Shown piece by piece: positions 2,647 through 46,792 of a DNA stretch of 64,000 bases. This stretch comes from an uncultured Fimbriimonadaceae bacterium. GTDB lineage: Bacteria; Armatimonadota; UBA10988. The stretch lies in the NCBI GenBank assembly GCA_964405335.1, contig CAYONP010000017.1, forward strand, positions 8,570 through 72,569. Direction: 5' to 3'. The translations under genes were made by a program, and so were the position numbers. How positions within the stretch are numbered: the first letter of the stretch is position 1; each line of letters starts with the position of its first letter. A model generated the notes under the pieces. The model ran no database searches, was not told the DNA's origin, and saw nothing but the letters and a program-made list of their open reading frames with translations.

Positions 2647-2847
2647 CCCATCCTCCGGGTGGCGGAGGCCGCCAAACCGAGTCTATCATCTCGACAGATG
2701 GAGTGCCACTGCGCGGGCGTTGACTTTGTGACGCGGTTGTTGCGAGCGGCGTAGCCGCGGCGTGGCCCGCCGGGCTGTATTGACCTCGGCCCGCTCCGGC
2801 CGTACCCTTGGGGCCCATGCCGGGCCGCGTCCGGCGCGGAGTGTGCC

Positions 2848-14709: not shown

Positions 14710-16015
14710 GATGCTCCAGTGCCCGCTGCAGGAGCTGGACACCATCATCTCGCGGGAGCTGAGCGAGAACCCGGCGCTCGAGGTCGTCGACCGAGCACCC
14801 GAGCCCGACGAGGAGCGTCCCGACGCGCGGCTGGCCAACGGCCCCGGCGCGCGGACCTGGACCGCCGACGGCGCGGCCGAGAGCGAGGGCGGCGCCGATG
14901 ACCCCATCGCCGCGTTGCCCTGCCCGGTGACGCTGCAGCAGCACCTCGGGTGGAGCTTCCGCGCCCTCGCCCAGACCCACGAAGAAGAGCGCATCGGGCT
15001 GCGGATCATCGACGACATCAACGATGACGGCTACTTCGAGTCGGGCATCGGCGAGATCGCCATGCACCTCGGTGCCGACATCATCGAGGTCGAGCGTGTG
15101 CTCGGCCTGGTGCACCAGCTCGAGCCGAACGGCGTCGGCGCGCGCGACCTGCGCGAGTGTCTGCAGATCCAGCTCCACGCCCTGCGCGAGGCAGGCCGCG
15201 ACCATGTCGTCGCGGTGCGCCTGGTCGACGAGTGCTGGGACCCCTTCTGCCGGCGGCAATACACCAACTGCGCGCGGCGGCTGCGCTGCAGTGAGCAGGC
15301 GGTGGTCGACGCGGCCGAGTTCATCCGCAAGCAGACACATCCCTACCCGGGCCGGCAGTACCGCGTGCCGTGGAACCTCAGCCCGGCGGCACCGCAGGCC
15401 CGGCCCGAGGTGCGGATCGATGCCAACCCGCACGACGCGCCGCCGCCCTATGTCGCCGACGTGGTCGAGTCGCGGCGGATGACGCTGCGCATCGATCGCA
15501 TCTACCGCCGGCTGTTCGACGAGATCCAGAACGGCGCCGCCGCCTCGCCCGACGATGCCGAGCATGTCATGACCTGCGTGCGCCGCGCGCGGCAGTTCAT
15601 CCGCAGCATCAACCAGCGGCGTGAGACGGTCCGCCGCATCGCCCAGAAGGTGGCCAACGAGCAGGTGCCATTCCTGCGTTACGGGCGCACGCAACTGCGG
15701 CCGCTGACCCGCCTGCAGATCGCGCGCCAGCTCGGTATCCACGAGAGCACCGTCGGCCGCGCGGTGGCGGGCAAGTTTGTCCAACTGCCGAGCGAAGAGG
15801 TGGTGCAGTTCGAGCTTTTCTTCGACTCGTCGCAGCCGGTGCGCCTGGCGCTGCAGGAGCTGATCGACTCCGAAGACAAGCGGCACCCGAAGAGCGACCA
15901 GGAGCTGGCCGACGCGTTGTTCGAGCAGGGCCACGAGGTGGCGCGGCGAACCGTCGCCAAGTACCGCCAGATGCTGCGCATCCTGCCCGCGCACCAGAGG
16001 AAGCAGACCACGTGA
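14639..16015 (+). CDS. rpoN: RNA polymerase sigma-54 factor
   Basis: Region I is MRLDYMQEARQEQTLSPRMIQFYEMLQCPLQELDTIISRELSENPALE, followed by an acidic region II. The core-binding domain contains IIDDINDDGYF ... LEPNGVGARDLRECLQIQL. The HTH and RpoN box ARRTVAKYRQML are present. Confidence 0.92.
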   Translation: MRLDYMQEARQEQTLSPRMIQFYEMLQCPLQELDTIISRELSENPALEVVDRAPEPDEERPDARLANGPGARTWTADGAAESEGGADDPIAALPCPVTLQQHLGWSFRALAQTHEEERIGLRIIDDINDDGYFESGIGEIAMHLGADIIEVERVLGLVHQLEPNGVGARDLRECLQIQLHALREAGRDHVVAVRLVDECWDPFCRRQYTNCARRLRCSEQAVVDAAEFIRKQTHPYPGRQYRVPWNLSPAAPQARPEVRIDANPHDAPPPYVADVVESRRMTLRIDRIYRRLFDEIQNGAAASPDDAEHVMTCVRRARQFIRSINQRRETVRRIAQKVANEQVPFLRYGRTQLRPLTRLQIARQLGIHESTVGRAVAGKFVQLPSEEVVQFELFFDSSQPVRLALQELIDSEDKRHPKSDQELADALFEQGHEVARRTVAKYRQMLRILPAHQRKQTT

Positions 16016-23911: not shown

Positions 23912-26215
23912 TCAGCCGCCGGCCATCACCTCCTCGAGCAAACGCAAGACCTCCAGCCGCACCCGCTCCGCGGTGCCGCGGTCCTTCGGCTCGTGCCACT
24001 CGATGCTCCGCGGATCGGGCTCGCCCAAGACCCGCCGCGGGCCGGTTTCGAGCAGGTCGGCCGCCGCGCGGCGCCAGGCTGCGTCGCCCCGGCCGGCGGC
24101 CAGCGCCTGGCGCAGCATGGCCAGGTACTGATAGTCCTGCTGGCTCTCGCGGATCGCCTCCATCTGCTTGGACGTGACGTTGCCATCGGGCCCCAAGAAC
24201 TGCGGTGAGAAGCAGGTCCGGCCGGTGCCCAGCTCTTGCCAGGCGTCGCCGGCGCCGCTGTCGCAAAAGGCCCAGAAGAAGCTCTGCTCGGCCCCGATGC
24301 GGAACGCCTCCCAGGCCTGGAGCAGCAGGTAGGCATAGGGGTCGAGCGCGCGGATCGGCCCGCTGCAGCTATACAGCGCCAGCCGCCGGCCGGCCTCGCG
24401 CTGGGCCGAGTAGACCGCGTCGAACTCGGCCGGATTGGCCAGCCACTGGACCCGGTTAGGGCAAAGTATGGTCGAGGTCTCGAGCAGCGCGACGGGCGCC
24501 TCGCGCGGCGCGGTGAAGATGGGGTCGTTCCAGATCACCACCGCGGGCGCCGCCTCGCCGATCACCTCGGCGTAGGTCACAATCAGCGCCGCCGACTCCT
24601 CGTCTCGCGGCTCGTCGGCAAGCAGCAGGCAGAGCTGGCCGGCATCGATGCCGCGCTGCTCGAGGTGGCCGACCCAGAACTCGATCCAGTCGCGCACCCG
24701 CCGTCGATCAGCCTCGTCTCCGAGCGGCGCGCCGAAGCTACAGAAGACGCAGTACCAGCGCGCGCCGGGCCAGCGGTCGAGCCAATCGTCCATCGCGGCG
24801 GTGTCGGGCGGCTCGAGCATCGCGCCGGTCGCGTCATGCCGGCCGAACGGCATCACCCGGCTGGTCGCCCAGGGCGAGTCGATGCCGTAGCGCCGCAGGA
24901 AGGCGACCGTGTCGTCGAGGTTGTCGTCGGTGATCCCGCGGCCGGGGCCGTCGGTGTAATCCCAGCCGCCCAGCGCCAGGGCGCGCTCGGCGGGCATGGC
25001 CACGGCCGAGACGCGCACGACCACCGGCACCGCCAGCTCGACGCCGTCGCCGGCCAGGCGCAGCGTGCCGTCGTAGCGGCCCGGCGCGACGCCGCGGCTG
25101 TCGATGCTGAGCCAGAGCTGGCCGGTCAAGCCGGCCACGAGCCGGAGCGGGCCGCCGAGCTCGGGCAGCGCGGCGGCCGCCGGAGGCCGGCCCTGGACCG
25201 CGGTCCAGACCACCTCGTGCAGCGTGGCGCCGGGCAGGCCGTCGAGCGAGGCCTCGCAGAGCAGGCTGGTGCCGCCGGCGTTGGCCAGGTTGAGGGCGGC
25301 GGCGCGGACCTCGCCCTGCATCAGCTCGACCTCGAGCAGCGGCGGCTCGGGCTCGGCCGGCGGCGGGTCGGTCAGCACGAGCGGATCCCAGCGATTGGCC
25401 GTCCAGACGGTCAGCTCGGGCCGGCCCATCGCCCGCCACAGCGCCGCCTGCGCGTGGAAGGCGGCCAACTGCTGCGGGGTGAGCGGCAGCGTCGCGCGCT
25501 CAAGCTTCGGCGCCTCGACCGGCAGACCAGCCACGGCCGGCAGCAGCGCGAGCACCTGCCGGCGCCGCTCCTCGTCGAGCGCGGCGGCCTCGACGGCGGC
25601 GCCGACGGCCTCGATGCTCGTGGCCACCTGCCACCGTACCTCGGCATCGTAACGCTTGCCCAGCAGCCAGGCGACCGGGTCGGTGATGGGTTCGCCGGCG
25701 AGCACGGCGTCGGGCGCGTCGCCTTGATAGACCTCGATCTCGTCGCAGAAGGTGTAGGGCCCGCTGGGCAGCACGCCGACGGCCAGATATCGCCCGCGCG
25801 CCGCGAGCCCGCCGGCCACGTAGCGGTGCGTCGCGTAGCCTTCGGCCGGCGGTGGATCGGCCAGCCCGGTGATCTCGCCGGCCTCGTACCAGGCCTCGCC
25901 GTCGTCGCTGACCAGCAGGTAGATGGCCGACGGCCAGGTGACCCCGGCGGTTCCGGCGGCGGTCGAGAAGCTGACTCCGCCGATGCTGCGCGGCTCGCCC
26001 AGGTCGATAGTGACGAGCACATGCCCGGTCGCCTGCCAGCCGACGCAGCCGGGCTGGACCCAGAAGTAGCCCTCGACGTACTCGCCGTCGGTGAGCTGGA
26101 CCGCGTCGCCCGGCTCGGTGCAGTGCTGGTAGTTCGGCCGCGGGTCGACGGTGTAGGCGCAGCCGCGGGCGAGGTTCGGCGGGGCGAGCAGCAGGGCGCA
26201 GACGATGGGCGTCAT
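23912..26215 (-). CDS. secreted discoidin-domain protein with DUF4091-like glycoside-hydrolase-like region
   Basis: ATG 26215 gives MTPIVCALLLAPPNLARGCA. The first 101 codons of the track ORF are junk overlapping the upstream gene. An F5/8 type C-like module is present (QLTDGEY, VTIDLGEPRSIGGVSF, YLLVSDDGEAW). The C-terminal assignment is tentative. Confidence 0.7.
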   Translation of the reverse strand: MTPIVCALLLAPPNLARGCAYTVDPRPNYQHCTEPGDAVQLTDGEYVEGYFWVQPGCVGWQATGHVLVTIDLGEPRSIGGVSFSTAAGTAGVTWPSAIYLLVSDDGEAWYEAGEITGLADPPPAEGYATHRYVAGGLAARGRYLAVGVLPSGPYTFCDEIEVYQGDAPDAVLAGEPITDPVAWLLGKRYDAEVRWQVATSIEAVGAAVEAAALDEERRRQVLALLPAVAGLPVEAPKLERATLPLTPQQLAAFHAQAALWRAMGRPELTVWTANRWDPLVLTDPPPAEPEPPLLEVELMQGEVRAAALNLANAGGTSLLCEASLDGLPGATLHEVVWTAVQGRPPAAAALPELGGPLRLVAGLTGQLWLSIDSRGVAPGRYDGTLRLAGDGVELAVPVVVRVSAVAMPAERALALGGWDYTDGPGRGITDDNLDDTVAFLRRYGIDSPWATSRVMPFGRHDATGAMLEPPDTAAMDDWLDRWPGARWYCVFCSFGAPLGDEADRRRVRDWIEFWVGHLEQRGIDAGQLCLLLADEPRDEESAALIVTYAEVIGEAAPAVVIWNDPIFTAPREAPVALLETSTILCPNRVQWLANPAEFDAVYSAQREAGRRLALYSCSGPIRALDPYAYLLLQAWEAFRIGAEQSFFWAFCDSGAGDAWQELGTGRTCFSPQFLGPDGNVTSKQMEAIRESQQDYQYLAMLRQALAAGRGDAAWRRAAADLLETGPRRVLGEPDPRSIEWHEPKDRGTAERVRLEVLRLLEEVMAGG

Positions 26216-26256
26216 GGTCGGCTCCGCGCCGAGGGTAGCACATCGGCGGCGCGGAG

Positions 26257-27678
26257 TTACTCGATCTGCGTGCCGACCGCCTCGGGCGCCGGGTCGAGAA
26301 TCACCTCGATCGGCCGTGCCGGGCGCTCGTCGCGGACCAGCAGGCGCACCGTCTCGCCGGCGCGCTTGGCGCGGACCAGCTCGCGCAGCGCCGTTGCCGT
26401 GGCAGTGCGCTCGCCGTCGCAACTGAGCACCACCATGCCGGGCACCAGGCGGCTCTCCGCCGGCGAGGCCGGCACCACGCCGACCACCAGCGCCCCCGAC
26501 TCGTACAACCGCAGCCACGGCCAGGCCCGCCGATCGGCCTCGGTCGCCAGGGCCACGTCTCTCAGCTCGGCGCCCAGGAAGCCCGGGCCCAGCGGGCGGT
26601 TGGGCGGCCGTACGGTGCTGATCAGCGGCCGCAGCCGAACCGCCACCGTCACCGTCTCGGTCCGCCGCGCCTCGACCGTCTCGACCGCGGCGAAGTAGCC
26701 GTCGCGTTGCACCACCACCTGCACCAGAGCGGTCGTCTCGTCGCCGAGGTCGACGTCGGCGGAGCAGGGCGTCTGGCCGACGGCGACACCGTCGACGGTC
26801 ACCTCGGCGCCCGAGGGCTCGGAACTGACGGTGACCGTCGCCATCGGCCGCGGTCGGGCCAGGATCAGGTCGGCGCCGCCGGGGTTGTCGTACATCGGGT
26901 GCTGGCGGTAGCCGCGGCCGGCCGACCAGTCGGCGACCTGGCGCTGCACGTAGGCGGCGAGGTAGTCGAGCGCGACCTGGCCGTCGGCATCGGCGGCGCC
27001 GCCGCGCAGGCCGTCGACCAGGAAGCGGGTGAACGCCCCGTGGCCCGCCTCGGGCCAGGCCCAGGCTCGCTCGCCGACCTGGCAGGCGAGCAGCGTGGCC
27101 ACCGCGCGCGGTCCGTGCGCCGTCTGCGTCAGCGCCGGCCGCAGGCCGCGCGCCAGGCCCTCGGTGAGCAGGTTGTCGCCCACCCCGCGGCTGGCATAGG
27201 GGTCGTTGCGGCAGGCGTCGATGAACAGCACCACCGTACCGGCGCGGACCTCGGCCAGCACCCGACCGAGCGAGTCGAGGCCGATGCCGGTCTCCTCGAG
27301 CAGCAGCGGGTCGCTGTCGGCGGTGAGCAGGAACTGGCCCTCGGGCGTCTCGATGCCGTGCCCGGCAAAGAAGACCAGCAGCGCATCGTCGGGCCCGGCG
27401 AGCAGTCCGAGCCGCTTGACCGCCAGCAGCAGATTGGCCCGCGTCGGCGGGCGCTCGGCCGCGGCCTCCGACTCGGCGAGGTATAGCTCGACCTGCGACT
27501 CGGGCAGGCCGGCAACGGCCGGGTTGGTCAGCGTCTCGGCCACCGCGCGCGCATCCGCGGCGGCAAAGGGCACCGCGCTGAGTTCGGGGTGGGAGTAGGC
27601 TTCAATCCCCGCGACCACCGCGAACGTGTCGGCCCTGGCCAATCCGACGAGCAGCAGCACCACCGCGCCCACCCGCAT
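26257..27678 (-). CDS. secreted caspase-family (peptidase C14) protein with PEGA and PDZ domains
   Basis: Signal peptide MRVGAVVLLLVGLARA. The His/Cys dyad lies in FFAGHGIE and LFIDACRNDP. A PEGA-like segment is VTVSSEPSGAEVTVDGVAVGQTPC. The PDZ-like C-terminus is GALVVGVVPASPAESRLVPGMVVLSCDGE. Confidence 0.8.
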   Translation of the reverse strand: MRVGAVVLLLVGLARADTFAVVAGIEAYSHPELSAVPFAAADARAVAETLTNPAVAGLPESQVELYLAESEAAAERPPTRANLLLAVKRLGLLAGPDDALLVFFAGHGIETPEGQFLLTADSDPLLLEETGIGLDSLGRVLAEVRAGTVVLFIDACRNDPYASRGVGDNLLTEGLARGLRPALTQTAHGPRAVATLLACQVGERAWAWPEAGHGAFTRFLVDGLRGGAADADGQVALDYLAAYVQRQVADWSAGRGYRQHPMYDNPGGADLILARPRPMATVTVSSEPSGAEVTVDGVAVGQTPCSADVDLGDETTALVQVVVQRDGYFAAVETVEARRTETVTVAVRLRPLISTVRPPNRPLGPGFLGAELRDVALATEADRRAWPWLRLYESGALVVGVVPASPAESRLVPGMVVLSCDGERTATATALRELVRAKRAGETVRLLVRDERPARPIEVILDPAPEAVGTQIE

Positions 27679-27717
27679 CGCTGGCCCCCGATCCGACCGG
27701 GCGGCCGTGGGCGCGGG

Positions 27718-32624: not shown

Positions 32625-35600
32625 ATGAGCACTGTGACGACTGCTGTGCCGCCGGTCTGTCCGCGCTGCCGCGCCGTGCTGCCGGCGGTGCGTTGCCCGG
32701 TCTGCCGCGAGGCCGGCCACCTCGACTACCTGCTGGCCGAGCTGGCCGACTGCGCCAACCGGGGGCGAATCCCGCGCGCCGAGGCCGACGCGCTGCTGGC
32801 CGACTATCAGCAGCGGCGCGAGGCGCTGCTCGCCCCGCCGCCGCTCGAGTTTGAGCTGCCCGCCGCGCCGCCGCCCACTCAGCTGCGGCCGACCGCGCCG
32901 CCCGAGCCGGCGGCCGGGCCGACCGAGTGGCAACGCCTGGTCAGCGCCACGGGTCAGCTCGGCTGGCTCTATGCCGTTGGCGTGATGTTCATCGTCGCCG
33001 CCCTCGGCTGGCTGGTGCTCACCTCGCTCGGCACGCCGCTGGGCCGTTGGATCCTGGCGCTGGTGGTGCTCGGCCTCGCCGCGGGCTTCTGGGCCGGCGG
33101 CTGGCACGTCAGCCAGCGGCTCGGCCTGCGCACCGGCGGCGAGGCGCTGCTTGCCGTCGGCACGCTGCTGGTGCCGGCGGGGCTGTTCGCGGCCAAGTTC
33201 GCCGTCGGCCTGGGCGGACCGGCCGCCGATGCGGCGATCTGGCTGGCGGCCGCGCTGCTGGCCGCGGTGGCCGTCCGGCGTGGCCGGCTGGCGTCGCAGC
33301 TTGCGCTGGCCAATCTGCTGGCCGTGCCGGCGCTCTACCGGCTGGCCGGCTTGCTCTGGCCAGCCGCGCCGGGGCCGGCCTGCGCCGCGGCCCTGCCGCT
33401 GCTTGCCGGGGTCGATGTCTGGGCCTCGGCCCGCTGCCGACGCGCCGGCGACGAGTGGCAGCCGCTGGTGACCGCCGCGCGCTGGAGCGCCTCACTGGTC
33501 GCCGCGCTGGCGGCGATGCTGCTGCTGAGTACCAGCGGCACGGTCGGGCCTGAGTTGTTCGGGGCGCTGCTGCTCGGCGCCTCGTTGATGGCCCTGGCCC
33601 ATGAGATGGAGCGGCCCGAACTGGTCGCGCTGGCCGCCGGCACCTGGTACCTAGCCAGCGTGGCGCGGCTCGAGCCCGGCTCCGAGGCAATCGTCGCGGT
33701 GATGCTCCTGGCCGCCGGCGCGGCGGTGCGGCGCAACGAACGGTTTGACCAGTGGACCAGCGGCTGCGCCATGGCGGTCAGCGCACTGATGATCCTGCGC
33801 TGGCTGCCCGAGTACCTGGTCCGCGACGTCTCGCCGCTGTCGGCGCTCGCCTGCTGGCTGCTGGCCGCGGCCTATGCCGCGATGGCCTGGGTCTGGCGGC
33901 GGCGCCAGTTGCTGGCCGCCGCCGTGGTGGTGGCCACCGTCGCCGCCTTGATGAGCACCGCCGCGTTTGGCCTTGGACGGGCCTTCAACCCGACGCTGCT
34001 GGCGCTCCTCGCCGGCGCCGTCATGCTCGCCGCCGCCGGCGTGAAGGCCGAGTGGGACGGGCTGCCGGTGGCCCAGGCGTTGGCGCCACGGGCGCTCACC
34101 CCGCTGGTCATCGGGCTGCTCAGCGGCGCCGTCGCCTGGCAGACCGAGCCGTCCGGCCTGGTGCTGCCGGCCGGGCTGATTCTGCTGACCGCCGCGTCGT
34201 TCGTGCTGTCGTACCAGATGCGCCGGCGCGAGGTGCTCTATCTGGCGGTTGTCCACGGTGCGCTGGCCGGGCTGATCATTGCCGATTCGCTGCCCATCGA
34301 CATCGACCCGGCGTTCGCCATGGCGCTCTGGGCGGCGGCGCTGGTGGCGGCGGCGATGCTGGCCGATGACCACCTCCAGCCGCTCGAAGTCTCGGGCGTA
34401 ATCCTCGCCTCGCTGGCCGGCGTGCTGGTCCTCGGCACGGTGCTGGTCAGCGGCGCCTCGCCATCCGAGCTGGCCGCCATGCTGGTCATCGCCGCGCTGA
34501 TGGCGGTGCCGACGCTGCCCCGCCTGGCGCCGCGCAGCCACCTGCCCGAGCTGCTGGAGCTGGGCTTCCGCCCCTGGGCGGCGCTGCTCGCGGTCGCCGG
34601 CGCGGCGGCCTGCGCGTCGCTGCTGCTCGGCGCCGGGCCGGGCCTTGGTGCCGCGGCCGCGGCACTGGCCATGGCTCTGGTCAGCCGGAGCCAACCGGTG
34701 GGCCCGTGGCCGACGGTGCTGCCGCGTGCCTCGCTCGCGGTGGCCTTGGCCGCCTGTCTCGACGTCGGTTCCGACGCGCCGTGGACCCTGCTGCTGAGCC
34801 AGGCGGCGCTGCTGCTGGCCGGCCGCTGGACCGAGGCGGGGCCGATCGCCGGCTTGGTCGCCTGGCTCTACTTCCGGGCCGGCCAGGCGTTCGGTCTCGA
34901 TCCGCAGTGGGGCCGGGCGCTGGCCGTCGATGCCTCGCTCGGCATCGCCTATCTGGCCTTGATTGGCCGCAGCCAGGCGGCGCCGGCCTGCGGCGCGGTG
35001 GTGCTCGCCTCGGCGCACGCGGCGCTGGGCGGCTGGCTCGGCGTCGAAGCGGTCGACCTCTGGTTCGGCCTCTACGTCGTGGCCATGATCGTCGTCGGCA
35101 TGGCGGTCGAACGACGGGACGCCACCGCCGCCGGTGGGGTCTGCGCCGTCGCCGGGCTCGCCGCGGTCGGCACGGTGGCCGGCGCCGTCGCGGCCGAACG
35201 GGTGGTCGAGGCGAACCTGTTGCTCTACGGCTACACCGCGCTGCTCGGCCTGCTCACCTGGCTGCGCGGCCTGCCGCCACGGGCGGTGCTGTCACTCGGC
35301 ACCGTCGCGCTGGCCTACTCGTGCTGGACGGTCGCCGTGCCGTCCGAAGGGCTCAGCCTGACCGAGTTCGGCGCGCGGCTGGCGGTGGTGGTGCTCAACC
35401 AGGCATTCCTCGCCGCGGCGCTGCGCGGCAGCCCGACCTGGTGCCGGCAGCTGCTCGAAATCGCCTCGGTGGTCGCCGTGCTCAGCCTGGTGGCGATGTT
35501 CGCGCCGGCCGACCGGCCAACCGTCTACGGCCTCGCGGCGCTCTGCGCGGCCAGCCTGACCAGCACCTGGACCACCGGCGACCGGCGGCTGAACGACCTC

Positions 35601-36071
35601 GGCTTCGGCTTCGCCTGGCTGGCCGGCTCGCTCATCCTGATCGACCTGGCCAACCACGGACGCGACGAGTTGGCGTTCTACCGTTCGCTCGATCTCTATG
35701 TCGCGCCGATCGGGCTCTATCTGCTGCTGGCCGTCGAGCAGCGGGCGAGCGACCCGCTGCTGGTCCGCCGCTCGGCGGTGCTGATGATCCTCGGCTCGCT
35801 GCTCATCGCGGCCTTCGCGGCAACCTCGCCGTGGCACGATGTGGCCTTCTTCTGCTGCATCGCGGCGGCGGCCTGGTTCGGCGTCCAGCGCACCGATCCG
35901 GTCGTCCGCGCCGCCGGGCTGGCGGCCTTCGCGCTCTACCTGGTCGGCTTTGTCTGGCAATACAAGGCGGCCAGCCGCTGGCTGCTCATCCCCGTGCTGC
36001 TGCTCCTCGGCGGCGTGGCCATCGGCTACGCGCTGTGGCGCGAGCGCGAGGAGCGGGCAGGGGAGGGATAA
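32625..36071 (+). CDS. giant polytopic membrane protein with N-terminal zinc ribbon
   Basis: 1148 aa. It starts with CPRCRAVLPAVRCPVCRE and a Pro-rich linker. About 25-30 hydrophobic helices then run to the C-terminus. The architecture recalls DUF2339/SCO7613-type proteins (tentative). Confidence 0.75.
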   Translation: MSTVTTAVPPVCPRCRAVLPAVRCPVCREAGHLDYLLAELADCANRGRIPRAEADALLADYQQRREALLAPPPLEFELPAAPPPTQLRPTAPPEPAAGPTEWQRLVSATGQLGWLYAVGVMFIVAALGWLVLTSLGTPLGRWILALVVLGLAAGFWAGGWHVSQRLGLRTGGEALLAVGTLLVPAGLFAAKFAVGLGGPAADAAIWLAAALLAAVAVRRGRLASQLALANLLAVPALYRLAGLLWPAAPGPACAAALPLLAGVDVWASARCRRAGDEWQPLVTAARWSASLVAALAAMLLLSTSGTVGPELFGALLLGASLMALAHEMERPELVALAAGTWYLASVARLEPGSEAIVAVMLLAAGAAVRRNERFDQWTSGCAMAVSALMILRWLPEYLVRDVSPLSALACWLLAAAYAAMAWVWRRRQLLAAAVVVATVAALMSTAAFGLGRAFNPTLLALLAGAVMLAAAGVKAEWDGLPVAQALAPRALTPLVIGLLSGAVAWQTEPSGLVLPAGLILLTAASFVLSYQMRRREVLYLAVVHGALAGLIIADSLPIDIDPAFAMALWAAALVAAAMLADDHLQPLEVSGVILASLAGVLVLGTVLVSGASPSELAAMLVIAALMAVPTLPRLAPRSHLPELLELGFRPWAALLAVAGAAACASLLLGAGPGLGAAAAALAMALVSRSQPVGPWPTVLPRASLAVALAACLDVGSDAPWTLLLSQAALLLAGRWTEAGPIAGLVAWLYFRAGQAFGLDPQWGRALAVDASLGIAYLALIGRSQAAPACGAVVLASAHAALGGWLGVEAVDLWFGLYVVAMIVVGMAVERRDATAAGGVCAVAGLAAVGTVAGAVAAERVVEANLLLYGYTALLGLLTWLRGLPPRAVLSLGTVALAYSCWTVAVPSEGLSLTEFGARLAVVVLNQAFLAAALRGSPTWCRQLLEIASVVAVLSLVAMFAPADRPTVYGLAALCAASLTSTWTTGDRRLNDLGFGFAWLAGSLILIDLANHGRDELAFYRSLDLYVAPIGLYLLLAVEQRASDPLLVRRSAVLMILGSLLIAAFAATSPWHDVAFFCCIAAAAWFGVQRTDPVVRAAGLAAFALYLVGFVWQYKAASRWLLIPVLLLLGGVAIGYALWREREERAGEG

Positions 36072-36152: not shown

Positions 36153-36512
36153 ATGAAGCGAACGCTGGTGTTGCTGTCCCTGTTTGCGGTACCGCTGGCG
36201 GCCGACGCCGCGACGGTCATGCTCCCGGCGCTGCCCGGCTACCACGAGGCCGGCGCCTGGAACAAGCGCCCGCCGCGGACGTTTCCCAAGGCGGCCGTGA
36301 CGCTGACCATGACCCAGGCCGAGGCCCCGATTGAGGCCGGCGCCTGGAACAAGCGCCCGCCGCGGCGGCCGTTCGACGGCGCCGCCGGCGCCGTCGGGCT
36401 GTCGTTGGCCGCCGGTCTGGTCGAGGCCGGCGCCTGGAACAAGCGCCCGCCGCGCAACTTCTGCGACTGCACCGGCTGCGAACACTGCCGGCCGGGCTGC
36501 CGTTGCCAATAG
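36153..36512 (+). CDS. small secreted protein with three EAGAWNKRPPR repeats and a 6-Cys C-terminal tail
   Basis: GGAGG lies 7 nt upstream of ATG 36153. The Sec signal is MKRTLVLLSLFAVPLAADA. Three in-frame repeats sit 29 and 30 codons apart. The C-terminus is NFCDCTGCEHCRPGCRCQ. Confidence 0.7.
   Translation: MKRTLVLLSLFAVPLAADAATVMLPALPGYHEAGAWNKRPPRTFPKAAVTLTMTQAEAPIEAGAWNKRPPRRPFDGAAGAVGLSLAAGLVEAGAWNKRPPRNFCDCTGCEHCRPGCRCQ
36246..36455 (+). repeat. three 33-nt direct repeats inside the small ORF
   Basis: GAGGCCGGCGCCTGGAACAAGCGCCCGCCGCG(G/C) occurs at 36246-36278, 36333-36365 and 36423-36455. 32 of 33 nt are identical in all three copies. The 54- and 57-nt intervening sequences are unrelated. 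Confidence 0.95.
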
Positions 36513-36526
36513 CCCCGTCCCCCACC

Positions 36527-36561
36527 GACACCGCCCGGCGCCTCCCCCGCCGGGCGGTGTC
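36527..36561. terminator. bidirectional hairpin between convergent small ORF and serpin operon
   Basis: GACACCGCCCGGCG-CCTCCCC-CGCCGGGCGGTGTC, a 14-bp perfect stem. It lies between the stops at 36512 (+) and 36576 (-). No U-run on either side. Confidence 0.55.
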
Positions 36562-36575
36562 ACGTCTGCCCGCCG

Positions 36576-37802
36576 CTACGGCGCGGTGACCCGCCCGCAG
36601 AACAGGATCAGCCCACTCGCGCGCTCGCGGATGAGGTAGAGGAACGGGCGATTGAGCGTCACCTCAACCAGGCCGGGCGTCGGGAGCGAGAGGGAATCCG
36701 TGGCGGACATCGTCGCCGCGGCCGCCTCGGTGCCCTGCTCATTGACGGCGATCCAGGTCTGCTGGTAGATTCGGTCAGCAACCATGCCGGCGCGCTCGGC
36801 GATGCCGCTGTAGTCCGCGCCGTCGCCCAGCGGCAGACCCATGCCTTCGACGAGGTTGTGCACCGAGGTGCGCGTTTCCCACTTCGGCATAGCCAGCCGC
36901 GCTGGCATCGTCTCGAGCGAGCCGATGAGCTGGTCGAGCCTCGCCAGGTCGAGCCCCTCCTCCCACTGCGCGAACTTGCCCGGGCCGGGCGCGACGATGG
37001 TCATCGCCAGCTTGCCGCCCAGATACGGGAGCTCCAGCACCTCGGTGTCGACCGCGCGCGCGTACGCCAGGCTGCCTTCGTGGTGCATCATCGGCACCTG
37101 CCGGACGACGCCCGCGAGGGTGGTGAACGGCCCGGACTGGGTCATCTCCACCGCGAACTCGTCCTGCCACGGCGCCAGCAGGCAGGCGGCGTTGGCCAGC
37201 ACAACCCACGGGATGCCATCACCAAAGCCCTCGGCCAGGTCGGTAATCCGACCATCGGTCGCCTCGCTGGCCCAGTCGTTGATCGCCGTGGTGAGAGCGT
37301 CGAGGTCGCTCATCTCGACGCGGTACAAGGGTGAGCCGAAGTGCGTGGCAATCAGACGCTCGAACTCCGGTTTGACCGGCACCCGCCGGTCGATCCAGCC
37401 GGCGCAGACCAAGCGCAGATCGAGGTCGGCAGCGGCGCGCTTGATGGTCTGGCTCAGCCCCGACACCGCCGCCGGCAGCGCCTCGGGCGCCTGCATGAGG
37501 TGCATGGCCTGTGCGAGCTGCGCGGCCGTCTCGCCGCGCGCGCCGGTGTAGATCATCGCCAGCGTCATCCACAAGCTGATCGGTGAGATGACGCAGTTGT
37601 CCTGACCCTCGTCCAGGCGCCGATAGGCGTCGAGCGCGAAGCGGTTGGCCGAGGTGACCAGCAGTTCGGGCTCGACGACTGCCGCGGCAGGCGGCGGTGG
37701 CGGCGGGCTCGGCGCAATAGCCGGCGGCGGCTCGGGCCGGTGCCCACAGGCCGACAGGGCCAGGCAGAGCAGAGCGCTGGTGGAGCGGATCAACATGCTC
37801 AT
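36576..37802 (-). CDS. serpin family lipoprotein (S1; canonical inhibitory hinge)
   Basis: Lipobox LALSAC and a Pro-rich linker. Serpin body: NCVISPISLWMTLAMIYTGARGETAAQL. The hinge plus RCL is EQGTEAAAATMSATDSLSLPTPG, followed by NRPFLYLIRERASGLILFCGRV. The start may instead be the ATG at 37796. Confidence 0.9.
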   Translation of the reverse strand: MSMLIRSTSALLCLALSACGHRPEPPPAIAPSPPPPPPAAAVVEPELLVTSANRFALDAYRRLDEGQDNCVISPISLWMTLAMIYTGARGETAAQLAQAMHLMQAPEALPAAVSGLSQTIKRAAADLDLRLVCAGWIDRRVPVKPEFERLIATHFGSPLYRVEMSDLDALTTAINDWASEATDGRITDLAEGFGDGIPWVVLANAACLLAPWQDEFAVEMTQSGPFTTLAGVVRQVPMMHHEGSLAYARAVDTEVLELPYLGGKLAMTIVAPGPGKFAQWEEGLDLARLDQLIGSLETMPARLAMPKWETRTSVHNLVEGMGLPLGDGADYSGIAERAGMVADRIYQQTWIAVNEQGTEAAAATMSATDSLSLPTPGLVEVTLNRPFLYLIRERASGLILFCGRVTAP

Positions 37803-39010
37803 CTCCCGAGGTCCGACGTGTCGGTCGGGCGAGTGACCCGCCCGCAGAACAGGATCAGCCCACTCGCGCGCTCGCGGATGAAGTAGAGGAATGGGCGATT
37901 GAGGGTGACGGTCACCTCGTTGGCGTTCATCTCCGCCTTCCTCGCCGCGAAAAGCGAGAACGACAAGGCCTTCGTGCCCTGCTCATCGACCTGGATCCAG
38001 GACTGCTGGTAGAGCAATGGCGGGGCCAGAGCCTGGTCGGTGATGCCGGTCAAGTCGTACCGATCGCGCAGGGGCAGCTTGAGCTCGCCGATCAGGTCTT
38101 GCCGCGTGGTCCGCGTCTCCCACCTCGGCATGGCCAGCCGCACATGCACCGACTCAAGTTTGCCGATGAGCCGGGTGAGCGTCGCTTCATCCAGCTTCTT
38201 TTCCCACGCGGCGAACTTGCCCTTGTCGGGCGCGACGATGGTCATCGCCAGTTTGCCGCCGCGATAGGGCAGCTCCACCACATCCGCGTCAACCGCCCGC
38301 ACATAGGCCAGGTCGCCCGCCTGGTGCATCATCGGCACCTGTTCGACCGGCCCGGCGAGAGTGTAGAACGGCTCCTCGCGCGTCTGCTTCGCGTCGAAGT
38401 CGTCGGCCCACTTGGCAACCAGATAGGCGGCGTTGGCGAGGACAACAGTAGTCGCCCGATCCGGGCGGACGTCTGCTGCCACGTGGGTGATCCGGCCCTT
38501 GGTGGCGCGGCGCGCCCAGCGGTCGATCGAGGGGCTGAGCGCGGCCAGGTCTCCGCCCCGGTAGCGCTGCACGCGCGCGCCGAAGTGGGCGCGAATCTGC
38601 CGCTCGTAGTCGGGCTTGACCGGCAGCCCGCGCTCGAACCACACCGCGCAGGCGAGCCGCAGATCGACCTTGGTGGCCGCCTCGCGGAGCAGCGGGTCGA
38701 GCCCCGCCACCGCCGCCGGCAGCTCGTCGGGCGCCTGCGTGAGGTGCATGGCCTTTGCGAGCTGAGCGGCCGTCTCGCCCCGCGCACCGGTGTAGACCAT
38801 CGCCAGCGTCATCCACAAGCTGATCGGTGAGATGACGCAGTTGTCCTGACCCTTCTCCAGGCGCCGATAGGCGTCGAGCGCGAACCGGTTGGCCGAGGTG
38901 ACCAGCGGCTCGGGCTCCGCCGGCAGCGGAACGACCACCGGCGGTGGCTCGGGCTTGCCGCAGGCAACCAGCGCAAGGCAGAGCAGACCACATGCAGTGC
39001 GGGTTACCAT
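37799..39010 (-). CDS. serpin family lipoprotein (S2)
   Basis: Lipobox LALVAC. The body is nearly identical to S1 in places (VTSANRFALDAYRRLEKGQDNCVISPISLWMTLAMVYTGARGETAAQL). The RCL is EQGTKALSFSLFAARKAEMNANE, followed by NRPFLYFIRERASGLILFCGRV. ATGA overlap with the S1 start. Confidence 0.85.
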   Translation of the reverse strand: MVTRTACGLLCLALVACGKPEPPPVVVPLPAEPEPLVTSANRFALDAYRRLEKGQDNCVISPISLWMTLAMVYTGARGETAAQLAKAMHLTQAPDELPAAVAGLDPLLREAATKVDLRLACAVWFERGLPVKPDYERQIRAHFGARVQRYRGGDLAALSPSIDRWARRATKGRITHVAADVRPDRATTVVLANAAYLVAKWADDFDAKQTREEPFYTLAGPVEQVPMMHQAGDLAYVRAVDADVVELPYRGGKLAMTIVAPDKGKFAAWEKKLDEATLTRLIGKLESVHVRLAMPRWETRTTRQDLIGELKLPLRDRYDLTGITDQALAPPLLYQQSWIQVDEQGTKALSFSLFAARKAEMNANEVTVTLNRPFLYFIRERASGLILFCGRVTRPTDTSDLGR

Positions 39011-40257
39011 GCTCGTCTCGGTAGTTCCTTCGGATCGATCGGGCGTGTGACCTGGCCGCAGAACAGCACGGCGCCGGTCGTGCGGTCACGGATGAGGAAC
39101 AAAAACGGCCGGTCGATATGGACCTGGACGGGCATCGCCTGAGTCAGGCCCATGGTGAGCAGTGCCGCCGCGGCGACGGCGACGGTGGTGCGCTGTTCAT
39201 CGACGCTGATCACCGCTATGCTCAGCACGTCGGCAACCCAATCACCCCGGCTGCCGCGGATGCCCGAAAAGTCGGCCGGCGCGAAGATCGGGCCGAGGCC
39301 GAGCGCGGTCAGTGGCTCCTTCAGCGCCGACTCGCTCGCGAAGCTGAACCGGGGCAGCTTGAGCTCGACCTTGACCTCCTCGAGCAGGCCCATCCACTCC
39401 GCCACTTCGTCCGGCGCCAGCCGCTCGCGGACCGCGACGAAGCAGCCCGGGTCGGGCACGATCAGCAGCATCGCCACCTCGCCGCCCACGTAGGGCAGCT
39501 CGACCAGATGCGCCTCGCGGACGCGGAGGTAGGCGCAGTCGATCGCTTCGCTCATCATCGGCACGTTGTAGTCCGCGCCGCTGAGCGGGTGAAACGGCTC
39601 GTCGTAGGTATTGCCGTGGAACGGGTGCTCCCACGGCGCGTCGAGGTAGGCCGCTTGGAGCAGGACAAGAAAGGTATCGTCATCCAGCGCCCCGCGCGGG
39701 ACCAGGTCGCGGACCAGGCCCTCGGTCCGCGCCTCGGCCCAGGCGTTCATCGCCCGGCGGCCCGATTCGCGGCTGAGGTCGGCGGCATACCAGCCCGCGC
39801 CGTAGTGCCGCTTGAGCAGGTCGAGGAACCCCGGCAGGAACGGCTGGTCGTCGCGCGCCCAGCCCGAACAGGCCAGCCGGAGCACGAGGCTGCCGCGGCC
39901 GCGCTCGGCCAACGCCGCGTCGAGCGCCCCGCAGGCAGCGTGGTGGCGGTCGTCGGGCAGTGCAATGCCCAGCGCGGAGCGCATCACCTCGGCGGTCTCG
40001 CCCCGCGCGCCGGCGTAGACCATCGACAGCACCTGCGCCGTGCTGTAGGGCGAGAGCAGCAGGTTGTCGTCGTCCGCGGCCGCCTGGAGCAGCTTTAGCC
40101 CGAAGGCATTGTGGCTCTGCGCGACCGATTCGACGTCGGCCGCCGGCGCTGTGCGCCGGGTTCGCACGGGCGAGGTGACCGGCTGCGGTCCGGTGCGCTC
40201 GCCCGGCCGACCGCAGGCAACCAGCATCAGGCAGCACAGCAACCCCACTGAGCGCAT
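39004..40257 (-). CDS. serpin family lipoprotein (S3)
   Basis: Lipobox LMLVAC. Serpin body: LLLSPYSTAQVLSMVYAGARGETAEVM. The RCL is EQRTTVAVAAAALLTMGLTQAMP, followed by DRPFLFLIRDRTTGAVLFCGQV. 7-nt overlap with the S2 start; GGGAGG RBS. Confidence 0.85.
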   Translation of the reverse strand: MRSVGLLCCLMLVACGRPGERTGPQPVTSPVRTRRTAPAADVESVAQSHNAFGLKLLQAAADDDNLLLSPYSTAQVLSMVYAGARGETAEVMRSALGIALPDDRHHAACGALDAALAERGRGSLVLRLACSGWARDDQPFLPGFLDLLKRHYGAGWYAADLSRESGRRAMNAWAEARTEGLVRDLVPRGALDDDTFLVLLQAAYLDAPWEHPFHGNTYDEPFHPLSGADYNVPMMSEAIDCAYLRVREAHLVELPYVGGEVAMLLIVPDPGCFVAVRERLAPDEVAEWMGLLEEVKVELKLPRFSFASESALKEPLTALGLGPIFAPADFSGIRGSRGDWVADVLSIAVISVDEQRTTVAVAAAALLTMGLTQAMPVQVHIDRPFLFLIRDRTTGAVLFCGQVTRPIDPKELPRRAW

Positions 40258-40269
40258 GGCGCACCTCCC

Positions 40270-41586
40270 TCAGCCGCTCGGGTCGACCACTCGGCCGAGC
40301 AGCAGCACCGCGCCCGTCGGCCGGTGCCAGACGACATAGACGAACGGCCGGTCGACGACCAGGTCGAAGGGCTCGCCGGGATCCGATACACCGCACTCGG
40401 CCGCCACCCCATAGCCGGCGGTGACCACCCGCGCCACGGTGCCGTGCTCGTCGACCTTCAGCCGCCCGCGCTGCAGCACGCTCTGGAGCCAGACCTGCGT
40501 CGGCTCGTCGGGATCGTGGCGCCGGCGGAGAATATTCGGCAGAGCTGCCTGCCGCCAGAGGAAGAGCGTGTGCAGGCCGGCCGCCTCCAGTGGCTCATCC
40601 AGCCGCAGGTCGAGCTGCTGCTCCCAGCGCGGCATGGTCAGGTTGCCGTGGCGCGGCTGCAGGTTGGTCAGCACCGTCCGCAGGCCGCCGCCGGCGAGCG
40701 CCTCCTCGGCGGCGGGCAGGCCGCCGGCGTCGGGCACAATCAACACCATGGCCAGCTCGCCGTCGCGATAGGGCAGCTCGACCACGTGCGACGCGAAGGC
40801 CCGCAGGTAACGGAACGACCGCCCACCGCCCGACAGGTCGGTGGCGCGCATCATCGGTACCGTGACCGGCCGACCGGCGAGGCGGTGGAAGGCCCGCAAG
40901 TCATCCTTCTCGCCGAACTGGTTCGACCAGCGCGCCGTCAGGTCGAGCAGGCTGACGATGACGAAGCCGACGTCGTGCTGGGGCAGCGTCGGTTGTTCGA
41001 TCACCGGCAGCAGCTTCTGCTCGCTCGCGAAGTCGGTGATTTCGCCGCCGGTCAGCTCGGCCACGTGCTGGCTCAGCTCGACCGCCAGACCGGCCTCGCC
41101 GGTCGACTGCAGCGGCACGAACCGGTCGCCGAAGGCACGCTTGAACGCCCGCGCGTACGACGGCGCGACCTCGACATAAGGGCCGATGCAGAACTCGCTC
41201 GACCAGGAGAGCCTGGTCGCCAGCTCGTCGTCGCGACTCTTGTCGATCCCGCCCAGCGCACGCTCGATGTCGCCGACGGCGTGGTACCAGTCGGCCGGCT
41301 CCAGCGTGCGGCCGAGCACGCGGTCGAGCTCGGCGGCGGTCTCGCCGACCGCGCCGAGGCGCACCCGGGCCAGCGCGGTGGCCACGCTGAACGGCGCGAC
41401 GAGCGCGTTGCCGTCGCACGCGGGAAAGGTCTGCCGAAACAGCGCCGCGGAGAAGTCGCACAGCCCGGCGCCGACGGCGGGCATGGCGGTCAGCGGCGGA
41501 GCCGGCTCGGCACGCCGCCGCAGCGCAGCCGGCCGGCCGCACCCGCAGACCAGGCAAACCAGCACGCTCGCGAGACATCGTCGCAT
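40270..41586 (-). CDS. serpin family lipoprotein (S4, most divergent)
   Basis: Lipobox LVCGC. Serpin body: ALVAPFSVATALARVRLGAVGETAAEL. The RCL is EHGTVARVVTAGYGVAAECGVSDPGEP, followed by DRPFVYVVWHRPTGAVLLLGRV. GGGAG RBS. Confidence 0.8.
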   Translation of the reverse strand: MRRCLASVLVCLVCGCGRPAALRRRAEPAPPLTAMPAVGAGLCDFSAALFRQTFPACDGNALVAPFSVATALARVRLGAVGETAAELDRVLGRTLEPADWYHAVGDIERALGGIDKSRDDELATRLSWSSEFCIGPYVEVAPSYARAFKRAFGDRFVPLQSTGEAGLAVELSQHVAELTGGEITDFASEQKLLPVIEQPTLPQHDVGFVIVSLLDLTARWSNQFGEKDDLRAFHRLAGRPVTVPMMRATDLSGGGRSFRYLRAFASHVVELPYRDGELAMVLIVPDAGGLPAAEEALAGGGLRTVLTNLQPRHGNLTMPRWEQQLDLRLDEPLEAAGLHTLFLWRQAALPNILRRRHDPDEPTQVWLQSVLQRGRLKVDEHGTVARVVTAGYGVAAECGVSDPGEPFDLVVDRPFVYVVWHRPTGAVLLLGRVVDPSG

Positions 41587-41707
41587 AACCCAACTCCCTC
41601 GCTCGGTGACCTGCCCGCTTGTTACCCCTTACGCCGATGCGACAATCATCGCGCAGCCATTCGCGCTGCCGGCGCGCCTCCTTCCTCGCGGCCGCCGCCG
41701 ACCGATA

Positions 41708-42310
41708 ATGGTCTCCGGCCGTGGAGCACCGCTCATGCTCGTCCGACGCTCGCTCCGACTGCTGCCTGTTCTGATTGCCGCCGTCGCGGCGCTGGCCGCG
41801 CCGACGCAGTGGCGGGTCGACCCGAACCACTCCGGACTCGTCTTCCGCGTCGGCCACCTCGGCTTCAGCCACGTCCACGGGCGGTTCAACACGTTCGAGG
41901 CCGAAGTGATGATCGATGACGAGCGGCCCGAGGAGAGCAGCGTCAAGCTGACGGTCGACGCGGCGAGCATCGACACGGGCATCGAGCGGCGCGACGAGCG
42001 GCTGCGCGGCGAGATGTTCTTCCAGGTCGACCAGCACCCCGAAGTGACCTTCGTGAGCACGAAAATCGAGGCGACCGCCGAGCGCGAGTACGAAGTGACC
42101 GGCGACCTGACCATCCTCGGCGTGACCCGTCCGGTGACCGCCAAGGTGACCCGCGGCAAGACCGGCCCGGCCGGCCGCGACGAGATTCACACCGGTTTCG
42201 AAGCGACGCTGAGCATCGACCGCACGGAGTTCGGGATGAACGCCATGCCCGAGGTGGTCGCCAACCAGGTCGACCTGACCTGGTCGGTGGAACTCATCCA
42301 GCAGCCGTAG
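41708..42310 (+). CDS. YceI family periplasmic protein
   Basis: WRVDPNHSGLVFRVGHLGFSHVHGRFNTFEAEV and LTILGVTRPV are YceI-like. The start is ATG 41708 or 41735. The upstream part of track ORF 41186..42310 is junk. Confidence 0.85.
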   Translation: MVSGRGAPLMLVRRSLRLLPVLIAAVAALAAPTQWRVDPNHSGLVFRVGHLGFSHVHGRFNTFEAEVMIDDERPEESSVKLTVDAASIDTGIERRDERLRGEMFFQVDQHPEVTFVSTKIEATAEREYEVTGDLTILGVTRPVTAKVTRGKTGPAGRDEIHTGFEATLSIDRTEFGMNAMPEVVANQVDLTWSVELIQQP

Positions 42311-46264: not shown

Positions 46265-46346
46265 GGGTCAGGTCTCGTTTTCAAGCCGGATGTTGCGATG
46301 GACGGGCGAACGTGTAACATGTCGCGGGATAATGAGACCTGACCCC
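46264..46346. repeat. 83-nt intergenic element with 13-bp terminal inverted repeats (copy A), MITE/REP-like
   Basis: GGGGTCAGGTCTC (46264-46276), a 57-nt interior, then GAGACCTGACCCC (46334-46346). The same termini, the same 57-nt spacing and a partly conserved interior recur at 54311-54393. Both copies are followed by GTG. Confidence 0.75.
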
Positions 46347-46399
46347 GTGGCGGGTTGCCGGGCTCATCCGCTGCTGCTAGAGTCACGCCGGAGAGCGAC

Positions 46400-46792
46400 A
46401 TGGCAGAGGGACACGGGCATCGCGTCTGGATTGTGCCGGACGGCTATCTGGCGAGCACGCCGGAGGGCTGCACCGGACCGACCGGTTACTTCTCGCACGA
46501 AAGCCTTTGCATCCTCAACGACGGTGACGAGCCGGCCGACTGCACGCTGGACGTCTACTACGAAGATCGTGAGCCGATCCTCGGCATCCGCTTCGTGGTC
46601 GGCGGGCTGCGCACCTGGCATTACCGGCTCGACCAGTGTCGCGATCACGCCGGTGAGCTGCTCGCCCGCGACGTGCCCTATGCCCTGCGGCTGACCGCCA
46701 GCCGCAACGTCGTCTGCCAGCACAGCCGGCTCGACGTCACGCAGCCGAACCTGGCGCTGTTCAGCATCGTCCCCTGGGCGGCCGACCGGTGA
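46400..46792 (+). CDS. sensory-rhodopsin-transducer (ASRT)-like small beta protein
   Basis: ATG 46400, 130 aa. Segments FSHESLCILNDGDEPADCTLDVYYEDREP and NVVCQHSRLDVTQPNLALFS match my recollection of the ASRT family (PF07100). Recognition is by memory only. Confidence 0.65.
   Translation: MAEGHGHRVWIVPDGYLASTPEGCTGPTGYFSHESLCILNDGDEPADCTLDVYYEDREPILGIRFVVGGLRTWHYRLDQCRDHAGELLARDVPYALRLTASRNVVCQHSRLDVTQPNLALFSIVPWAADR

Follow-up and report, generated by a model that had tools for sequence, protein, structure and literature searches.

The 64-kb stretch of DNA analysed here (64,000 nt of contig CAYONP010000017.1; hereafter the window) carries four consecutive minus-strand genes for predicted lipoprotein serpins, which we call S4, S3, S2 and S1 in the order in which they would be transcribed. 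On balance, we favour the view that they form an operon of four envelope-tethered serpins presenting four different baits, in which S1 is a standard inhibitor while S2, S3 and S4 have lineage-specific hinges. Its novelty lies in a combination of features: the probable operon of four genes is conserved, three of the hinges depart from the consensus and yet are conserved, the baits evolve fast, and gene conversion spares the reactive-centre loop (RCL). The characterised prokaryotic serpins that we found in the literature have each been studied as an individual protein, and no paper was found on bacterial tandem serpin arrays or operons, or on serpins of the Planctomycetota.

The four serpin genes

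All four proteins match the Pfam Serpin profile (PF00079) from end to end, with E-values of 5e-75 for S1, 2.5e-76 for S2, 6e-79 for S3 and 4e-51 for S4 (253, 258, 266 and 175 bits against a cut-off of 27) and alignments spanning profile positions 2–370 in S1–S3 and 4–370 in S4. None of the four was matched by any NCBIfam model. Among solved serpins, leukocyte elastase inhibitor, conserpin and miropin come closest to S1 and S2, conserpin to S3 (3e-51), and Serpin 42Da and PAI-1 to S4. S2 is 61% identical to S1, S3 35% and S4 29%, and the P17 Glu, the P14 Thr, the breach Trp and the C-terminal RPF are invariant across the array (E355, T358, W212 and R385-P386-F387 in S1). AlphaFold returned a confident serpin fold, which consists of three beta-sheets and 8–9 helices with the RCL between s5A and s1C, for S2 (pLDDT 87, pTM 0.85) and for S4 (pLDDT 82, pTM 0.83), and every one of the 50 matches listed for these models by Foldseek is a serpin, with a probability of 1.00. 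The fold is thus modelled for S2 and S4 and predicted from sequence matches for S1 and S3, and we conclude that S1–S4 are ordinary members of the serpin superfamily. A preliminary description of the window, made from its letters before any search was run, had proposed four minus-strand serpin open reading frames (ORFs) of 408, 403, 417 and 438 aa, with the lipoboxes and junctions given below. The coordinates, lengths, lipoboxes and junctions (an ATGA overlap, a 7-nt overlap and a 12-nt gap) were all confirmed, as was their serpin identity (full-length PF00079 matches, E = 4e-51 to 6e-79), and the possibility that the ORFs are not serpin-fold is contradicted both by these matches and by the S2 and S4 models.

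The genes are packed tightly on one strand and are therefore probably a single operon. The S4 stop codon is followed by a 12-nt spacer containing GGGAGG and then by the ATG of S3, which in turn overlaps S2 by 7 nt (ATGGTAA). S2 and S1 share a 4-nt overlap (ATGA) if S1 begins at its first ATG. The more likely start is a second ATG, 6 nt downstream of the first and preceded by GGGAG at 6-nt spacing; it is also the start of the database gene call P0001 (406 aa), and its use turns the overlap into a 2-nt gap. Shine-Dalgarno sequences stand ahead of S1, S3 and S4. Co-transcription is suggested by the single strand, by the minimal or overlapping spacing and by conservation of the S4-S3-S2 arrangement in two relatives. 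Orthologues of S3 and S4 are 98–99% identical on a 4.5-kb Logan contig from a sister strain (L163) and 79–83% identical at the amino-acid level on a 5.6-kb contig from a related species (L161, of which L162 is a shorter copy from another sample). Both contigs preserve the order divergent YceI gene, S4, 12-nt gap, S3, 7-nt overlap, S2. The flanks conserved in relatives are the YceI gene and that for a beta-helix protein, the latter also being present at the L161 locus.

Both contigs break off inside S2, at residue 52 in L161 and at residue 386 in L163, and in each case the break falls within a tract in which S1 and S2 of the window are nearly identical. We infer that S1 is present in these genomes too, because short-read assemblers break at such points when a second copy exists. 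Searches of a collection of 5.8 billion proteins, of a set with one genome per species and of metagenome contigs gave S1 and S2 no match above 38% identity apart from each other, so that relatives offer no check on the S1 end of the array.

S4 and the YceI gene are separated by an intergenic region that presumably serves as promoter and 5' leader, with GAGGGAG as a Shine-Dalgarno sequence 7 nt ahead of the ATG of S4. This region is 96.6% identical in the sister strain and 84.5% identical in the related species, as against 69–74% for synonymous sites between the species. No sigma-70 consensus promoter was found, and a scan for promoters and intrinsic terminators gave nothing useful on the minus strand. 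Beyond the other end of the array, a GC-rich hairpin (minimum free energy -47.6 kcal/mol over an 81-nt stretch, z = -3.5) is a probable terminator without a U-tract. Rfam gave no match in the window.

All four proteins satisfy the PROSITE PS51257 rule for lipoproteins (Lys or Arg at the N-terminal end, then a hydrophobic segment and a lipobox whose Cys falls within residues 15–35), with the lipobox LSAC in S1 (Cys at 19), LVAC in S2 and S3 (Cys at 17 and 15, respectively) and CGC in S4 (Cys at 16). The Cys is followed in each case by Gly-(His/Lys/Arg) and then by a Pro-rich linker of ~20–30 residues, features which point to lipidated proteins located at the envelope. A lipobox is common among the full-length homologues (177 of 329, or 54%), and the lipoprotein nature of S1–S4 is therefore not special.

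Hinges and reactive-centre loops

The hinge regions were compared with a rule for inhibitory serpins (Glu at P17, Gly at P15, Thr/Ser at P14 and small residues, i.e. Ala/Gly/Ser, at P12–P9) which is a predictor of inhibition and not a proof of it. S1 satisfies the rule and has the consensus hinge of most homologues. The other three proteins fail it: in S2, P11 is Leu and P9 is Phe; in S3, P15 is Arg and both P12 and P10 are Val; in S4, P11 is Arg and is followed by Val at both P10 and P9. The strict rule is satisfied by 246 of 289 homologues (85%) and a relaxed form of it by 96%, with S2 among the 12 outliers. In S2 the inward-facing even positions (P14, P12, P10 and P8) hold small residues, and the S4 hinge aligns to that of PAI-1 as GTVARVVT to GTVASSST, the GTVA at P15–P12 being common to both. 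The preliminary description was right that only S1 has the canonical inhibitory hinge and gave the four RCL strings correctly, but the EQGT and NRPF with which it flanked them apply only in part, S3 having EQRT...DRPF and S4 EHGT...DRPF.

The P1 residue was placed by counting in the canonical register only, with the scissile bond 17 residues after P17 and P1 14 residues after P15. The P1/P1' residues predicted in this way are Leu371/Ser372 in S1, Ala359/Glu in S2 (with Arg357-Lys358 at P3-P2, either of which is an alternative P1), Gly370/Leu in S3 (with Met369 at P2, likewise an alternative P1) and Ala396/Glu in S4 (with a conserved Cys at P2').

AlphaFold places the loops of S2 and S4 in an inserted state, in which a strand made up of the hinge and the proximal RCL immediately follows s5A. 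The strand comprises residues 345–354 of S2 (~37949–37978; mean pLDDT 94 over residues 341–350 and 55 over 351–360) and residues 382–390 of S4 (~40417–40443; block mean pLDDT 91 and 87), while the distal RCL is of low confidence in both models. The best Foldseek matches are relaxed serpins, namely the latent L chains of antithrombin, cleaved PAI-1, cleaved CBG, cleaved Serpin 42Da, latent conserpin and latent tengpin, and the S2 model has an rmsd of ~3.1 Å to latent chains versus ~6 Å to native antithrombin chains. The inserted loops are notable because AlphaFold has been reported to push serpins towards the native state, latency-prone variants included (PMC11226102).

These observations could mean that S1 is the only inhibitor of the array, and that S2–S4 are non-inhibitory or latency-prone lipoproteins with a serpin fold, an alternative which we regard as possible but doubtful. 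Their hydrophobic, beta-prone hinges would insert into sheet A spontaneously, or too slowly to trap a protease, and the proteins would have a binding, decoy or structural role, or would be short-lived inhibitors like PAI-1. Failure of the hinge rule by all three, set against the conformity of most homologues, fits this idea, as does the retention of GTEAAAAT in most readable copies of other tandem bacterial sets (see below). So do the confident P15–P6 strand in the S2 and S4 models and their resemblance to latent or cleaved structures against the reported native bias. The atypical hinges are, moreover, conserved between species and so are selected features, and the hinge of S4 resembles that of latency-prone PAI-1. 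PAI-1 is nevertheless a real inhibitor, as well as the classic example of a serpin that converts spontaneously to a latent form, and both it and heparin cofactor II inhibit despite non-Ala residues in their hinges. The P17 Glu, P14 Thr and breach Trp are kept in S2–S4, and the inserted state seen in the models, which cover S2 and S4 only, may be an artefact. Finally, a constitutively buried loop should be conserved, yet P6–P5' is the fastest-evolving segment. A bolder idea, which we think rather unlikely, is that S2–S4 represent an unrecognised kind of bacterial serpin with conserved, hydrophobic, beta-prone hinges and spontaneous six-stranded insertion. They would act either as timed, PAI-1-like inhibitors or as constitutively relaxed serpins in a non-inhibitory role, and would be operon-mates of a canonical inhibitor, with gene conversion keeping up the scaffold but not reaching the bait cassette.

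Selection and gene conversion in the array

Between the window and the related species (L161), the ratio of nonsynonymous to synonymous divergence (dN/dS, or omega) is 0.33 for both S3 and S4, at dS values of 0.32 and 0.39. Both genes are under purifying selection and are working genes. Their hinges from P15 to P7 (RTTVAVAAA in S3 and GTVARVVTA in S4) show no amino acid change between the species, and the substitutions that do occur fall at P6, P2 and P1'–P5' in S3 and at P16, P6, P4–P2, P1' and P3' in S4. Over P7–P6', dN reaches 0.43 in S3 and 0.37 in S4, compared with 0.125 and 0.10 in the rest of each gene, a nonsynonymous excess which is significant for each gene singly (Fisher p = 0.004 and 0.005) and for both combined (6e-5). 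An invariant hinge joined to a fast-changing P4–P4' is the signature expected of a protease-facing bait in the canonical register, and it speaks against both decay and permanent burial of the loop. The analysis of dN/dS along the alignment proposed in the preliminary description thus finds a nonsynonymous hot spot in the RCL between orthologues of S3 and S4, and the RCL is also the most divergent part of S1 and S2.

It could still be supposed that the additional copies have become redundant and are on the way to being pseudogenes, with odd hinges and loops that simply reflect decay. Omega in the body of S1 and S2 is indeed fairly high (~0.6), and three of the four hinges are off-consensus. The comparison of orthologues nevertheless largely refutes this explanation and leaves it scarcely credible: the ORFs are intact in three genomes, omega between species is low with the S3 and S4 hinges unchanged, the junction geometry and Shine-Dalgarno sequences are conserved, and the core serpin residues are invariant.

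The history of S1 and S2 is of a different kind. A 49-nt stretch identical in the two genes had been taken as a sign of recent duplication or gene conversion. The stretch exists and belongs to larger near-identical tracts of 218 nt (94%) and 77 nt (95%), and gene conversion stands as the explanation of these; a recent duplication was rejected, the mid-gene dS of 0.60 being above the between-species values, and the duplication is therefore older than the species split. Synonymous differences are rarer at the gene ends, where dS (0.13 and 0.27) is below the between-species values, than in the middle (p = 8e-5). The longest stretch of identity measures 56 nt, whereas none of 2000 permutations gave more than 42 nt. 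The simplest reading is that the duplication predates the split and that both ends were later homogenised by gene conversion, which would have spared the RCL. Across the hinge and RCL, dN is 1.02 and amino acid identity 16%, the lowest in the gene. The DNA of the RCL core aligns between S1 and S2 no better than shuffled sequence, and this core behaves as a replaced or saturated cassette. The idea that the S2 RCL is a frameshifted S1 RCL was also rejected, as no alternate frame matches. At its N-terminus, the S2 of L161 has a long Pro-rich linker like that of S1 in the window, and window S2 therefore carries a 9-aa linker deletion. In a neighbour-joining tree S1 and S2 group together with 100% bootstrap, and the S1/S2 pair, S3 and S4 fall near one another, with a bootstrap of 6.5% for their monophyly.

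In the reading that we favour, the lipoprotein signal peptide would export each serpin, the conserved Cys would be lipidated and the Pro-rich linker would tether the protein to a membrane of the envelope. S1 would act as a canonical suicide-substrate inhibitor: once cleaved at the predicted P1 Leu, its bait loop would enter beta-sheet A, and the protease would be trapped as the acyl-enzyme. S2, S3 and S4 would be older or faster-diverging paralogues, each with its own conserved non-consensus hinge and bait. Gene conversion would homogenise the scaffold of the youngest pair, S1 and S2, and exclude the RCL, which evolves fastest. The most likely task of the four baits would be to shield proteins of the envelope or surface from proteases of several classes whose genes are not close by, whether exogenous or secreted by the cell itself. 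The inhibitory activity of S1–S4 and the nature of their targets are here predictions drawn from the sequences.

Several points weigh against this reading. All four genes are seen together on this contig only, the contigs of relatives ending inside S2. S2, S3 and S4 fail a hinge rule that the great majority of homologues satisfy, and the S2 and S4 models are loop-inserted, with latent and cleaved serpins as their best matches, although we do not take this as evidence of latency. No serine protease or linked target protease is encoded in the window, and we know of no lipoprotein sorting rules for the Planctomycetota. The four-way inhibitory shield suggested in the preliminary description is itself not supported, given the failure of three hinges and the inserted loops of two models.

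Table 1. Coordinates of the serpin array and associated features (window positions unless a relative's contig is named; dS values are for S1 against S2).
Feature	Position	Strand	Remarks
S1 lipoprotein serpin	36576..37802	-	408 aa, or 406 aa if begun at the more likely second ATG (37796)
S2 lipoprotein serpin	37799..39010	-	403 aa
S3 lipoprotein serpin	39004..40257	-	417 aa
S4 lipoprotein serpin	40270..41586	-	438 aa, three insertions
S1 hinge and RCL, P17–P12'	36654..36740	-	hinge EQGTEAAAAT
S2 hinge and RCL, P17–P12'	37898..37984	-	hinge EQGTKALSFS
S3 hinge and RCL	39112..39198	-	hinge EQRTTVAVAA
S4 hinge and RCL	40363..40449	-	hinge EHGTVARVVT
Predicted 5' gene-conversion tract	S1 37456..37673, S2 38700-38917	-	94% identical
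Predicted 3' gene-conversion tract	S1 36586..36662, S2 37833-37909	-	95% identical
Signal peptide and linker	S1 residues 1-42		dS 0.93
5' tract	S1 residues 43-110		dS 0.13
Gene body	S1 residues 111-355		dS 0.60
Hinge and RCL	S1 residues 356-379		dS 0.76
3' tract	S1 residues 380-408		dS 0.27
S4-YceI divergent intergenic region, presumed promoter and 5' leader	41587..41734		148 nt
GC-rich hairpin, 15 bp	36526..36562		14 nt past S1 stop, between convergent S1 and small-protein genes
Partial S2 in relatives	L161 5417-5572; L163 3383-4540		contig ends inside gene
Caspase-like Peptidase_C14, PEGA and PDZ protein, signal peptide	26257-27717	-	

Genomic context and known systems

The window has a GC content of ~70% and includes two genes with DUF1559 and an N-terminal methylation motif, as well as one for a protein with a PEP-CTERM motif; what is known of these families suggests a lineage of the Planctomycetota. 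Neighbouring genes were annotated by Pfam. Upstream of the array, and divergent from S4, lies the YceI gene, followed by genes for a beta-helix lipoprotein, a GH4 glycosidase and sugar metabolism; downstream, the gene convergent with S1 encodes a small secreted protein with repeats, and the one after it a polytopic membrane protein of 1148 aa. The only peptidase-like genes in the window are one for a protein with caspase-like Peptidase_C14, PEGA and PDZ domains ~9 kb away, one for a DJ-1/PfpI protein and a weak M28 match.

The first of these is the only plausible protease near the serpins, and is five genes away from them. The array might accordingly be imagined to control the cell's own proteolysis, either through this protein or through unlinked secreted proteases, in self-protection or control of maturation. 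Planctomycetota secrete many hydrolases. Moreover, serpins can inhibit clan CD cysteine proteases, as miropin does the gingipain Kgp (bioRxiv 10.1101/2025.09.05.674453). We consider this explanation distinctly unlikely, however, because the five intervening genes are unrelated and the C14 gene belongs to a separate transcription unit, the conserved flanks of the array (YceI and the beta-helix protein) include no protease, and the 64 kb contain no serine protease; for this last reason, control of an endogenous secreted protease cascade, as entertained in the preliminary description, is not supported either. Dedicated inhibitors also typically adjoin their partner protease, as the potempins do (PMC9890683). 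That no protease gene is linked to the array speaks for a defence against unlinked or foreign proteases, the role proposed for miropin, rather than for a dedicated inhibitor–protease pair.

Some other genes of the window deserve mention in their own right. The small secreted protein convergent with S1 (36153-36512, plus strand; 119 aa) carries, besides a signal peptide, three ~30-aa repeats that share the core EAGAWNKRPPR, and six of the 16 residues in its tail, NFCDCTGCEHCRPGCRCQ, are Cys; it has no Pfam match. Only three matches to it were found in 1.84 billion representative proteins: two near-identical relatives of 89 aa (two repeats) and 60 aa (one repeat), and a third of 273 aa with four VEAGCWSKARP repeats. 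Either the number of repeats varies between strains or the repeats have been collapsed in assemblies. The neighbouring 1148-aa membrane protein (32625-36071, plus strand) has an N-terminal CPRC...CPVC zinc-ribbon-like motif and is likewise without a Pfam match. A large ORF of up to 868 aa (23912-26518, minus strand) adjoins the C14 gene. Two sigma-54-related genes (2755-4152 and 14633-16015, both on the plus strand) consist of one complete RpoN (AID, CBD and DBD) and one in which only the DNA-binding domain is recognisable. A further gene (46343-46792, plus strand) encodes a member of the Anabaena sensory rhodopsin transducer (ASRT) family; the annotated part of the window contains no gene for a rhodopsin.

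The array was placed in context by a survey of 160 serpin loci from other genomes and metagenomes. A single serpin gene was found at 145 of them, as the preliminary description had supposed for bacteria, and two or more at 15 (9%), or at 7 of the 71 loci that are flanked on each side by 3 kb or more. None of the 160 has four, and, with the literature silent as noted above, an array of this kind would not seem to be a common and already described one. The largest other array (L014, 9710-13764), in a metagenome-assembled genome (MAG) of the Armatimonadota, has three tandem serpin genes, the third of them frameshifted, and both of its alignable copies have Trp at P15 (EKWTEAAGAT and EKWTEAAAAT). 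In most tandem sets every copy with a readable hinge keeps the GTEAAAAT type and differs only distally; the exceptions are one copy at locus L024 (GTVASAAT) and the two L014 copies. The presence of three deviant hinges in one array is therefore what is truly unusual here.

The function of prokaryotic serpins has been called enigmatic, and most have export signals (Spence et al., PMC8233489). The best precedent for the system we propose is miropin of Tannerella forsythia (PDB 5NCS), a surface lipoprotein serpin which protects against foreign proteases (bioRxiv 10.1101/2025.09.05.674453). As is predicted for S1–S4, it is a bacterial lipoprotein serpin, envelope-anchored and with a proposed role in protecting surface proteins, and it is homologous to S1 (E = 2e-34) and S2 (E = 5e-37). 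However, miropin is the product of a single gene and has several reactive sites in one RCL with a canonical hinge, whereas here there are four genes with four RCLs and three non-consensus hinges. It also comes from another phylum, with ~24% identity. Broad-spectrum serpins of the miropin type are marked by several reactive sites in one RCL and by surface exposure shown in experiments; of the traits of miropin, S1–S4 share the homology and the lipobox. The potempins of the same organism (PMC9890683) are comparable in being outer-membrane lipoprotein inhibitors of differing specificity in one bacterium, but they do not belong to the serpins, and the gene for each lies immediately upstream of that for its target protease, whereas the serpin array has no linked protease.

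S4 also invites comparison with PAI-1 (SERPINE1), which is among its best sequence matches in the PDB. Besides the GTVA of the hinge, the two have in common the C-terminal block DRPF..VV.H.PTG.VL..G.V..P, and the latent, loop-inserted form of PAI-1 is the state that AlphaFold predicts for S4. Overall identity is only ~24%, however, and S4 has Arg-Val-Val at P11–P9 where PAI-1 has Ser-Ser-Ser.

Tandem pairs and triplets in Chloroflexota, Actinomycetota, Armatimonadota, Kiritimatiellia and other MAGs are similar to the array in consisting of adjacent same-strand paralogues, often with a lipobox, whose RCLs differ distally. They comprise two or at most three genes, in contrast to the four found here with three divergent yet conserved hinges. 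As four small genes behind what would be one promoter, the array offers a compact system for studying hinge tolerance and latency in bacterial serpins, and its four RCLs are ready-made specificity variants for inhibitor engineering.

If our interpretation is correct, bacteria share a strategy with metazoans in which the scaffold is duplicated and the bait diversified, here with the hinges fixed and P4–P4' changing fast. Metazoan serpin clusters (those of Drosophila, PMC2770083; SERPINA3 duplicates, bioRxiv 10.1101/2025.01.07.631777) likewise arose by tandem duplication, have the RCL as their fastest-evolving part and mix hinge-competent with hinge-defective members, and the homogenised scaffold and divergent RCLs of S1 and S2 are similar. 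The metazoan clusters are, however, eukaryotic and separately transcribed, and serve in immunity, venom resistance or development, whereas the genes described here probably form one prokaryotic operon of overlapping genes with predicted lipoprotein anchoring.

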